A DNA stretch of 64,000 bases from Octopus sinensis (taxonomy: Eukaryota): the NCBI RefSeq assembly GCF_006345805.1, contig NC_042999.1, positions 121,892,001 through 121,956,000 of the forward strand, given 5' to 3'. Numbering within the stretch: position 1 is the stretch's first letter; each line of letters opens with the position of its first letter. Positions 1 through 40,998 of this stretch are shown in pieces. The notes below the pieces were generated by a model, which was not told the DNA's origin, did not search any database, and was given only the letters and a program-made list of their open reading frames with translations. The position numbers were made by a program, and so were the translations under genes.

Positions 1-71
1 GGTCTCTGGGTGAGACTTGGAGCCAACTTGTACAGACATAAAGCAAAAGTCAAACATAGAATAATAATAAT

Positions 72-257
72 AATATCGAAAAATACCTTAGGAATGAGAA
101 CCCAGGTTCGAAATTTCCCCAAGGCACCTGATGAAGGCTGGAAGGTATATCATCCAAAACATTGTGTTAACAACAAACAAGATGAGGACAAATATCTGTC
201 AAGTGTAAATAGTGTAAATAATGTACATAATTCCTCATCTCTTAAATATAGAACTGT
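72..257 (+). mobile_element. Hammerhead-bearing short element (3' part), same family as 37866-38014 and 39376-39550
   Basis: Near-identical to the other two copies. Degenerate hammerhead GGCAC-CTGATGA-A-GGCTG..CATCC-AAAAC-ATT-GTGTT at ~123-168, in which GAAA has become AAAA. Preceded by (AAT)n. Confidence 0.8.
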
Positions 258-37606: not shown

Positions 37607-37865
37607 ATGCCCAAGACAAAACATCCTCTTGTTATTCAACCTACTAAAAATATCAACTAAATATCCCTCAAATTACATCGTAGAAAAGTAATACAATGCT
37701 TGATGTCATCTTTATTACTCTAAAAGACTTGATGACGATGGTTGAAACACCATTGGTCTGCTTAGTTCAAAGTTGACTTGAGGCCAAACAACAATATCAA
37801 CAAATACAAACTCCAATTTATAATGCAAAAGTGCTTCAATGATAATTTTAAAGCTGTATATATAT

Positions 37866-38014
37866 ATTATTTACATTATTTACATTCGACGGATATTTGT
37901 CCTCATCTTGTTTGTTGTTAACACAACGTTTTGGCTGATATATCTTCCAGCCTTCTTCAGGTGTCTTGGGGAAATTTCGAACCTGGGTTCTCATTCCTAA
38001 AGTATTCTTTGATG
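37866..38014 (-). mobile_element. Hammerhead-bearing 3' part of the left arm of the tRNA-headed element
   Basis: Reverse complement of 39376-39520. The hammerhead at 37920-37965 has GAAA changed to AAAA. Confidence 0.9.
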
Positions 38015-38067
38015 TTATTATTATCATCATCATCATCATCATTATTATTATTATTATTATTATTATT

Positions 38068-39136
38068 CAGTAGTATATTTTTTATATCGTGCTTTCACTT
38101 CACTACCGAGTACAGCTCTGTGTGCCTTGGGTATGTGCTGTGATTTGTTGTGATGCTCTGATGGTTATTGTATGGAAAGTGTTCTGTGTAGGATGTGTGC
38201 AGTGCCTAGTAGTGCAATTTTCTGTATGTTATATGTGTTTGTAAGTCCTGGTGTTTTTGTTATGTATTTGTCTGAATATTTTTTTATCATGCCTAATGCA
38301 CCTACTATGATAGGAATTGTTTCTGTTTTTAGATTCCACATTCTGGTTACCTCTATTTCCAGGTCTTTGTATTTTGAGAGTTTCTCCATTTCTTTTAGAG
38401 ACACGTTGTCATCTGCCGGTATTGATACATCAATTAGAAAGCATTTTTTTTCTTCATGATCTCTGACAACTATATCTGGCCTGTTGGCCTTAATTTCTCT
38501 ATCTGTGTGTATCGGCATATCCCAGAGTATGGTTGCTTTCTCGTTTTCTGTGACCTTTTCTGGTGTGTGCCTATACCATATTTTTTCTGTTGTTATTCCA
38601 TAATGTTGGCATAGCTTCCAATGTATGTAGGTTCCAACTCTGTCATGTCAGTGAATATATTCCTTCTTAGCCAGGACTGGGCAGCTAGAGATAATATGAT
38701 TTATTGTTTCTTGTCCATCTCCACATATTCTGCAGTTACTTGTAATATTTCTTTTCATTGCAAGTTTTTAGTAATTTCTGGTGGGGAGGCTTTGGTCTTG
38801 TGCTGCAATTAAAAATCCCTCTGTTTCTGCTTTGAGTCCTGAGTTTCTCAACCATTGCTGGGATTTTTCTTTGTCTATTTCTTTTGCGTTTAGTTTAGTC
38901 CAGTATTTACCTTGAAGGGGCTTTTCTTGCCATCGTTTTATCATGGTTCGTTGCTGTTCTAGTTTTAGTTTGGATTTCATTTGTTTTATAGCTTTTGTTG
39001 TTTCTTCTTCTTCTTCTTCTTCTTCTTCTTCTTCTTCTTCTTCTTCTTCTTCTTCTTCTTCTTCTTCATATATATTAGGTGGTATGATTTCTTGTTTGTA
39101 TTTGTCAGCTTCCTTAAATACTGAGAACAGTTTTTT
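38068..39136 (-). mobile_element. 5'-truncated R4/Dong-clade non-LTR retrotransposon (CCHC knuckle plus restriction-like endonuclease), inserted in (TAA)n
   Basis: One reading frame with two stops: ETEGFLIAAQDQSLPTRNY*..CRICGDGQETINHIISSC..H*HD..ILWD.PIHTD..NRPDIVV..LIDVSIP..KLSKYKDL..PIIVGALG..LLGTAHIL. About 95 nt of 3' UTR. (TAA)n on both sides. Confidence 0.92.
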
Positions 39137-39148
39137 ATTATTATTATA

Positions 39149-39190
<42 letters not shown>

Positions 39191-39348
39191 GTTCAGATGA
39201 CTGCTTGGAATCGAACTCAGAATCTTGGGGTTAGTAGCCAGCACTCTTAACCACTATGCCATATGCCCACGGGCATATGGCGTAGTGGTTAAGAGTGCTG
39301 GCTACTAACCCCAAGATTCCGAGTTCGATTCCAAGCAGTGACCTGAAC
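39191..39348. promoter_or_regulatory. Head-to-head pair of tRNA-like Pol III heads (78-bp inverted arms, 2-nt spacer)
   Basis: Arms 39191-39268 (-) and 39271-39348 (+) differ by 4 mismatches. A box TGGCGTAGTGG at 39278-39288 and B box GTTCGATTC at 39323-39331. No proper acceptor stem, so this is a SINE-type head and not a tRNA gene. Confidence 0.88.
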
Positions 39349-39375
39349 AATAATAATAATAATAATAATAATAGT

Positions 39376-39550
39376 AACATCGAAGAATACCTTAGGAATG
39401 AAAACCCAGGTTCGAAATTTCCCCAAGACACCTGAAGAAGGCTGGAGGGTATATCAGCCGAAACGTTGTGTTAACAACAAACAAGATGAGGACAAACATC
39501 CATCGAATGTAAATAATGTACATAATTCCTCATCTCTTAACTATAAAACT
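39376..39550 (+). mobile_element. 3' part of the right arm of the tRNA-headed hammerhead element
   Basis: Third copy of the family. It follows the head and (AAT)n and ends at a (TA)n tract. Confidence 0.9.
39427..39472 (+). ncRNA. Minimal type I hammerhead ribozyme (PLE-type)
   Basis: Stem I GACAC/GUGUU, core CUGAAGA plus an extra A, stem II GGCUG/CAGCC, GAAA, and a loopless palindromic stem III ACGU. Predicted cleavage after GUU at 39467. Confidence 0.75.
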
Positions 39551-40998
39551 GCTGTATATATATATATTTTGGAAGTACAGATATTTGGAAACAAGAATAG
39601 TTTCTGGAAAACATACTATTACATATTATTTCTGAGCTATTTTAACATAAAATGTTAATGCATTTTTTGTAGCCTAAGTAGTTACATGGGGATTAAAAAT
39701 ATTTCACTATCATTATATAACTACATAAATCTATGCTTTCTTGTCAGTTGTTAGGCATAACAATTAATAGAGTTAAGTATGGAATAAATCTCTCATAAGC
39801 AGTCTCTTGAGTTTAAAGAAGACTCACATTTAAGAAAGAGGGAGAAAATGTTTTTGTTGTGAACTAATTCTATATTATTTTATTTTAGTTGCCATCCTTA
39901 AATTACAAATTATATTTAATGTTTTTTTGATTTAAATTCATTTCTAACTCTAAATCTAAAGATATTTATTTAAAAAGGAACTAATTTTATTGTAATTTGA
40001 AAGTGATTTTTAGCAAACAGCTGGAAATATAATTAATTTCCCCATTAGTTAGCAATTCATCAAATAAATGTTTTCTCCTTGCTTTGGTTGAATTCTTTGA
40101 ACTAAACGCATCCTATTTAAAAAGAATTTTGTTGCAATATTAAAATAACAGTGGACACTTAGTAAATTGGTATCAATTCATGTTACATGCACTTTTCTGA
40201 CTGATCACTTTCTAAATTACATTTTAAACATCTTAATTAAGAATTAATTAAAATTTAAGAATGAATAGTTAATTGTAGTAAATTAAACTTCATAATATTT
40301 TTTTCAGTTTTATGGACAGCTTAATTCTGTTCACATTACCTCTTTCTTATAGTATTATCAAATACAGCATCTTCCATCTTTTGAGAATCTCTGAAAAGCT
40401 GTTGTCTATAAAAGGTATTACGAGGAATAATTTACTTCTTAGAGAGAAAAAAAATTATAAATAGAGATTGAAATAGTTTAAATTTTATTTTGCTATTTGA
40501 TGTGAATTAAAATGTGAACATATTTTTTGCTAACTATATTATTTATGAGACATTTTAAAAATTAATTAAAAATATAGGCACATCTATAGTAAAGAATAGT
40601 AAATAATTTTCATAAATTTAGAATAATACTTTATGAAGGAATTTACCCATAATACTATCATTCAAAATAAGGGAGACATTTTAAAACTGTAGTGTTATAT
40701 GTCAATTATAATGCCTTTTAAAAACATCTCTGAACTACCAGACCATTAAAATATTCACTGTCTAATACTAAATTTATTTCTTTATAGTGTCCAATAATTC
40801 ATAGAATCAATTTCATCCATAAGCAGAAGCTAATTCCAGTGGGGGCTGGATAATTTCCAATACATTACTAGTATGTCTTTTGATCAAACTCAAAACAAAA
40901 GGCAAAGTTTGCATTAAAAAGATTTAAATTCAGTTTACAAGATTAAGTTAAATACTTTAGACATTTAGTCTATCTAGCTTTAATATTTCTCCCAGTTT

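Follow-up and report, generated by a model that had tools for sequence, protein, structure and literature searches.

We describe a locus at positions 37866-39550 of a 64,000-nucleotide stretch of Octopus sinensis DNA (NC_042999.1, positions 121,892,001 to 121,956,000; below, the window), which is a single head-to-head insertion of two pieces of the pseudo-long terminal repeat (pLTR) of a Penelope-like element (PLE). Comparison with other copies indicates that the repeat unit, made up of a tRNA-like head, an (AAT)n linker and a body containing a hammerhead ribozyme, is almost certainly the pLTR of an element of about 2.8 kb of the Penelope/Poseidon type. Furthermore, we consider it probable, if far from certain, that the insertion was copied by the element's own reverse transcriptase (RT) from an RNA beginning at the head, which resembles a promoter of RNA polymerase III (Pol III). 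What is new is the tRNA-like head in a PLE pLTR; the inverted pair with a single tail is already known.

The arms at 39162-39268 and 39271-39377 are 95% complementary with a spacer of 2 nt, and the outer parts (37866-38046 with 39346-39526) pair with 91% complementarity. The mirror image centred on 39269-39270, described earlier from the letters alone (the sequence-only reading), is thereby confirmed, and so is the order head, (AAT)n, body within each arm. The two head copies are 94.9% identical; identity is 94.0% over 151 nt for the left body and 86.5% for a third body at 72-256. The arms are unequal, the right one having a tail of about 25 nt and the left one none. They had been taken to end at (TA)n; this is in fact a 15-nt target-site duplication (37853-37867 and 39551-39565), a direct repeat that surrounds the whole dimer. 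The third body, placed at 72-257 by the sequence-only reading, does exist; it forms the long arm of another inverted dimer (locus L091), which begins about 2 kb before the window. The left linker holds a 1068-nt fragment of a long interspersed nuclear element (LINE; 38068-39135). Its translation contains a CCHC knuckle and an RPDI..D motif, which we assume to carry their usual meaning; the label Dong is used for it provisionally. The features are as follows.

37853..37867, + strand: left 15-nt target-site duplication, flanking direct repeat
37866..38016, - strand: short arm of the pLTR body, ending at body position ~149, no tail; hammerhead G12 mutated
38017..38067, - strand: (AAT/GAT)n linker, outer part
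38068..39135, - strand: later insertion in the AAT linker, 3' end of a 5'-truncated non-LTR retrotransposon (Dong/R4-like, provisional name)
39135..39190, - strand: (AAT)n linker, inner part
39193..39268, - strand: tRNA-like head, left arm
39269..39270, no strand: mirror centre AC, the same two bases as those before the head in the parent PLE
39271..39346, + strand: right-arm copy of the tRNA-like head, with the A box at 39278-39288 and the B box at 39322-39332
39347..39377, + strand: (AAT)n linker, right arm
39378..39552, + strand: pLTR body, long arm; N-terminal coding region of the PLE open reading frame (ORF) from ATG 39398 onward
39427..39472, + strand: minimal type I hammerhead; CUGAAGA 39432-39438, GAAA 39460-39463, palindromic stem III
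39527..39551, + strand: PLE 'tail', in one arm only; runs on into the ORF in full-length copies
39551..39565, + strand: right 15-nt target-site duplication, the former (TA)n
72..256, + strand: long arm of the second inverted dimer of the same family, the remainder lying upstream of the window (L091)
1..60, + strand: 3' end of another Dong-like LINE, distinct from the first, in the AAT linker of that second dimer

The parent element was located by reading upstream of head copies. Some heads are directly preceded by the C-terminus of a PLE endonuclease, the head lying about 25 nt downstream of the ORF stop. With the endonuclease stretch as query, the head followed in 27 of 29 other loci, while the remaining two go directly to the body. 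A full-length natural copy (L171) reads head, AAT, body, ORF, RT, endonuclease, head, and thus carries the pLTR as a partial tandem with a minimal hammerhead, as is characteristic of PLEs. An RVT_1 match was obtained in L118 (E 1.2e-9), and homologs at 52-68% identity carry PF00078 and PF26215. The endonuclease motif YSIPCSC..Y.GET..H..H, read by eye, provides the C-terminal CCHH arrangement, and homologs of the related protein P0005 carry PF01541 or a GIY-YIG name; as a point against the assignment, the Pfam GIY-YIG model PF01541 did not match L130 or L112. When the translation was compared with the definition in PMC8557442, no CX2-5CxxC finger was seen between RT and endonuclease, and the CCHH motif was present. 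The absence of the extra zinc finger would fit the Penelope/Poseidon clade, and the inverted, 5'-truncated copy with a tail on one end is the form expected of endonuclease-bearing PLEs. The involvement of PLE enzymes, as proposed earlier, is thus supported, and the body indeed matches the terminal repeat of an autonomous RT- and GIY-YIG-type PLE. Head and body are also linked genome-wide: a body lies at most 1.5 kb downstream in 63 of 70 head copies sampled in positional order along the sequence C1. The part of the sequence-only reading that has to be given up is the separate non-autonomous element borrowing PLE enzymes, as head and body are the own terminal repeat of an autonomous-type PLE and the body is coding.

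The 30 loci that best match a protein of this PLE type all belong to this one family. Every ORF copy seen is interrupted, with no whole open frame and a longest open stretch of 551 aa. Exact 25-mers from the tail, from the head start and from the sequence just upstream of the head number 4183, 1315 and 803, respectively; the tail 25-mer is intact in 20 of 57 long arms, which gives an estimate of about 12,000 insertions. The route to the partner through the Pfam GIY-YIG model led to 30 top and 19 extended loci without a match to head or body; these belong to other PLE families and were used as controls. No relative was found in a viral-contig collection. The nearest protein relatives are P0001-P0007 (52-68% identity), which come from public assemblies, several of them on contigs of about 2.7 kb, approximately one element unit.

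The body itself is the N-terminal coding sequence of the PLE ORF, with the hammerhead inside it. From ATG 39398 its frame aligns with the N-terminus of the 847-aa relative P0005 (11/20 identical, E 5e-05), and in L414 body, tail and ORF share one reading frame. Of the hammerhead proposed for the body, the core together with stems I and II can be made out in the right arm, where the folding z is only -1.79; the claim holds in full for this arm alone, G12 being changed to A in the left arm and in the 72-256 copy. The PLE-type minimal form with palindromic stem III was correctly recognized, and its core is kept across 287 bodies. At core position 7 (body 59, window 39436) two subfamilies are seen, with U in 194/287 and A in 83/287. 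Cleavage is predicted after 39467, where the triplet (body 90) is GUU, usually a weak hammerhead cleavage triplet. At least seven other PLE-associated hammerhead variants are present in the genome (L092, L094, L098, L101, L103, L105, L106, L109), mostly with a palindromic stem III and with differences in the other stems; several occur in families whose GIY-YIG domain is preceded by an additional zinc finger, and in one of these many copies have 781-aa open frames.

In the head of the right arm an A box (39278-39288) and a B box (39322-39332) can be read in the sequence, as had been noted before; the assignment follows what we take to be the box consensus. The best alignment of the head among 33 distinct host tRNAs (10 anticodon types, not all isotypes) is to tRNA-Arg(TCT), with z 11.9. 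It is 64-75% similar to the heads of other short interspersed nuclear elements (SINEs) from the same genome and, being tRNA-related with A and B boxes, resembles the head of a tRNA-derived SINE. Three octopus SINEs of this kind, OK, OR1 and OR2, were reportedly described by Ohshima and Okada in 1994. They likewise have a tRNA-derived head with both boxes; in contrast to them, the PLE unit has no CORE- or Deu-type body and no LINE tail, a distinction by description only, so that it may be identical with one of them. ARAGORN and Rfam (gathering thresholds over the window, E-value over 37800-39620) returned no tRNA and no hammerhead. RNase P-type cutting at the head was considered and rejected: the cloverleaf is lost, and most ends keep bases upstream of +1.

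The position at which copies end points to an RNA start at this head. In the sample of 70 head copies along C1, 55 extend no more than 7 nt upstream of the head, a number reduced to 54 by inspection of L191 and including two copies that duplicate one another; the other 15 continue for 14-697 nt. In a second sample selected by the tail (58 tail-bearing arms in order along C1, three duplicates dropped), 27 of 39 arms reaching the head start stop there, whereas stops in 20 of 59 arms are spread across 71 nt inside the head; by hand calculation, stops per base are about 15-fold denser at the head start than inside the head. Copy ends fade at -9/-10 from the T of the A box; in two families of ordinary host SINEs, with 24 and 18 copies, the start lies at -11/-12 from the T of their own A box. 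The full-length copy L171 starts at the same point as the short copies. Among distant relatives (31-48% identity), 80 loci were examined, and not one has both boxes after its ORF.

TTTT is the terminator of Pol III. Along 2.6 kb of the sense strand, it occurs at no position in more than 10% of the copies. L172 has no sense TTTT and 32 antisense; L414, L419 and L423 have none, compared with 3.1-3.8 expected from synonymous-codon shuffles (P 0.014, 0.006 and 0.009). Pooled over 12 non-independent copies, 7 were counted versus 33 expected; the 17 longest loci of headless relatives, which represent about four independent families, have 65 versus 94. Other PLE ORFs in the genome contain 2-18 TTTT. 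The sense strand is thus without a conserved TTTT, at modest significance. Taken together, we regard a Pol III start at the tRNA-like head, in line with the sequence-only reading, as the somewhat better-founded assumption. More tentatively, the family may be an autonomous PLE switched to Pol III, which captured a tRNA-like promoter in its pLTR and lost every sense TTTT and whose short copies would be strong-stop cDNAs; Pol III transcription of the whole coding element can be entertained with similar reserve.

A number of observations weigh against these assumptions. The 25-mer counts at the head start and just upstream of it are only 1.6-fold apart; this ratio is compatible with head-start stops only because few copies retain the CpG-bearing head 25-mer unchanged (on C1 it was present at 5 of 74 upstream matches, by hand comparison). 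In three RNA-seq runs of the same species no start site and no depth step was seen at the head, both strands were covered at equal depth and 74-81% of the reads continue into unlike flanks; since a 76-nt head beside an AAT repeat maps poorly, these runs neither support nor refute a Pol III start. A search of sequencing runs listed no RNA data set with the element. The TTTT depletion rests on one family with 12 non-independent copies, it is not significant in shorter copies (P 0.04-0.56), among the headless relatives, too, one family has a deficit (about 0.6 of expected), and low TTTT counts were likewise obtained for three Dong-like controls. The predicted fold of the head is not a tRNA cloverleaf. 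In the literature, a LINE-like internal promoter is reported for the D. virilis Penelope (PMC2377424), the processivity of Pol III has been argued to restrict such RNAs to about 1.3 kb (PMC10886601), and according to Kojima autonomous partners of Pol III-driven TRIMs (terminal-repeat retrotransposons in miniature) must use Pol II (PMC10886601).

Several of these points would also be accounted for if the head were a passive tRNA or SINE relic in the 3' untranslated region of a PLE transcribed by Pol II or by read-through, the pile-up of ends arising from the quasi-palindrome or from a chance Pol II start. The lost tRNA fold, the LINE-like promoter of the known Penelope (PMC2377424), the modest TTTT depletion partly common to headless relatives and the RNA-seq without an RNA start at the head agree with this, as do the 18 of 54 stops that are palindromic at the head start like that of the window. 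Fold-back alone is insufficient to explain the stops, however, because the other 36 are not palindromic, 24 of them keeping the A at -2. An RNA hairpin would moreover be expected to stall the RT at its 3' foot and not at its loop, the register of the stops lies near that of host SINE starts, and both boxes match the consensus although the cloverleaf is lost. We therefore consider a passive relic unlikely.

It had also been proposed that a SINE or retrozyme is present. Short head-AAT-body copies might be their own Pol III masters and constitute a SINE which the PLE protein mobilises in trans. They outnumber long copies among the arms reaching the head, contain the promoter boxes together with both presumed RT start sites, and are less diverged (0.065 versus 0.088, in a selection-biased sample). 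Against this, no position separates 127 head-terminated from 61 endonuclease-linked heads, and the only clear split outside CpG sites, A/G at position 64, is about evenly balanced in either class. Since no base distinguishes the two, short and long copies would seem to derive from the same sources, with some copying from short loci still conceivable. The anole PLE protein, furthermore, needs ORF sequence beyond the tail, which the short copies do not have (PMC11167929). A SINE mobilised in trans thus appears improbable, slightly more so than the relic. The unit is contiguous with a PLE ORF and without diagnostic positions of a non-autonomous lineage; head-to-tail tandem hammerhead units, as in retrozymes, are absent from the window, and the head-to-head form dominates. 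The family is a PLE, and it is neither a SINE nor a retrozyme. Among the RNA joints listed, no circle-type joint was present.

The inverted arrangement of the window is the norm in this family and a known insertion form of PLEs. An inverted partner was found for 44 of the 58 tail-bearing arms, in agreement with the frequent integration as a divergent pair that had been anticipated. A body is present in 39 of these inverted partners; it stops at 139-150 in 35 of them, and the tail is missing from all 39. Body ends overall are bimodal, with 54 at 165 or beyond, 37 at 140-151, 7 shorter and none between. Exact flanking repeats of at least 10 nt surround 17 of 36 inverted pairs (two entries being one locus counted twice) versus 0.16% of 1260 mismatched pairings, and repeats of at least 8 nt surround 22 of 36 versus 3.7%. 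At one variant site both arms share the same state in 60/71 loci (0.85 versus 0.58 expected) and at a second in 24/31 (0.77 versus 0.47); on the other side, two further variant sites show no clear arm concordance and the overall arm distance is barely lower within loci (0.095 versus 0.104). Inverted, one-tailed insertion has been described for PLEs (PMC8557442), and hammerhead pairs on opposite strands 100-700 bp apart were noted earlier as probable truncated PLEs (PMC4209133). A single event is concluded because one duplication flanks both arms and the same form recurs. Two independent adjacent insertions or an assembly artefact, to which the 5-6% difference between the arms might point, can practically be dismissed in view of the single duplication around both arms, the same form in 44/58 loci, which also shows that the palindrome is not peculiar to this locus, and the LINE in one arm only. 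Near-identical copies with common flanks (L165-L167, L420; L386, L387, L389, L390; L012/L023; L204/L205) represent segmental duplications or carriage in other repeats; where so stated, they were left out of the counts.

A single duplication, one tail in each pair, arms of common origin and defined 5' ends fit two cDNAs primed on opposite strands. On this model the element RNA would begin at the tRNA-like head, acting as a Pol III promoter, and the endonuclease would nick both strands about 10-15 nt apart. Each nick would prime cDNA synthesis at one of two internal sites, at body positions of about 145 and 174, and both cDNAs would run about 300 nt to the physical 5' end of the RNA and stop there, like retroviral strong-stop DNA. 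The two ends would then be joined head to head, helped by the quasi-palindrome at the head start, which would favour a symmetric product such as that in the window. To give longer copies, cDNA synthesis would have to be primed in the 3' repeat or to include a template jump, or the RNA would have to be tandem or circular. The LINE would have entered the AAT linker later. In vitro, the protein of an anole PLE cuts and extends both strands, hammerhead cleavage is unnecessary, a dimer was predicted, and cDNA starts at two internal sites that bound the tail (PMC11167929). On the more tentative reading of a PLE switched to Pol III, the thousands of short copies may record both the transcription start and the two-strand mechanism of PLE inverted repeats.

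Among known systems, PAc of Anolis carolinensis likewise has a single ORF with RT and C-terminal endonuclease, an inverted 5'-truncated copy and AT-rich targets (PMC11167929, PMC8557442); its ORF start overlaps the hammerhead, and the tail lies between two ends within the first ~150 nt of the ORF (PMC11167929). In contrast to PAc as described there, the octopus pLTR begins with an A/B-box tRNA-like segment and (AAT)n, 5' ends cluster there, and conserved sense TTTT is lacking. The TRIMp3 elements Cassandra, Helenus and Ajax share a small-RNA-derived Pol III promoter in the terminal repeat, and Cassandra also a terminally redundant transcript, but they are non-autonomous LTR elements of 311-1263 bp, whereas the octopus element is an autonomous-type coding PLE of about 2.8 kb (PMC10886601). 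In the SINE-like repeats Sm-alpha and Sj-alpha of Schistosoma a Pol III promoter is also followed by a hammerhead (reviewed in PMC6765202); these are tandem and non-coding, while the octopus hammerhead is of the minimal PLE type, lies in the ORF and belongs to an autonomous-type element. As regards the promoter, TRIMp3 and the Schistosoma repeats are the nearest parallels, and both are non-autonomous. Animal non-LTR retrozymes are short pLTR-derived sequences with type I hammerheads too, arranged as head-to-tail tandems with one hammerhead per unit, in contrast to the head-to-head pairs with one duplication seen here (bioRxiv 10.64898/2026.07.22.740005, PMC7761336); in the part of the preprint consulted, tandem pLTR derivatives are the subject and tRNA heads receive no mention. 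Literature searches, whose coverage excluded most subscription papers, did not turn up any PLE with a promoter derived from a tRNA or used by Pol III. The consulted parts of cephalopod and mollusc repeat papers do not describe a PLE with a tRNA-like head, and no hammerhead or Poseidon entry was found in the part of the PMC13282606 supplement consulted. The family itself may well be catalogued already in repeat databases (Dfam, Repbase and SINEBase lay outside the search).

Because transcripts made by Pol III are short and terminate at runs of T, Pol II or Pol I read-through is regarded as necessary for autonomous retrotransposons. If this reading is true, a PLE driven by a tRNA-type promoter would depart from that rule, and translation of its uncapped RNA would still have to take place; it would also show how an autonomous element can give rise to SINE-like copies with no separate SINE involved. 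The family is a large natural record for a question raised in the PLE literature, how the inverted repeats and tails of these elements form. For annotation, automatic pipelines could label these short copies tRNA-SINEs.

The (AAT)n linkers are a landing site of at least three Dong-like LINE families and of a common element of about 500 nt (L017, L028). Insertions in linkers were observed at window 38068-39135, at L091 6330-8060 and in L013, L016, L017, L028, L120, L188, L370 and L393, and the linker of L052 contains a tRNA-like sequence and a SINE 3' end. Within the LINE fragment of the window, positions 39002-39067 form an in-frame (GAA)22, read as poly-Glu, which is probably a later microsatellite expansion.
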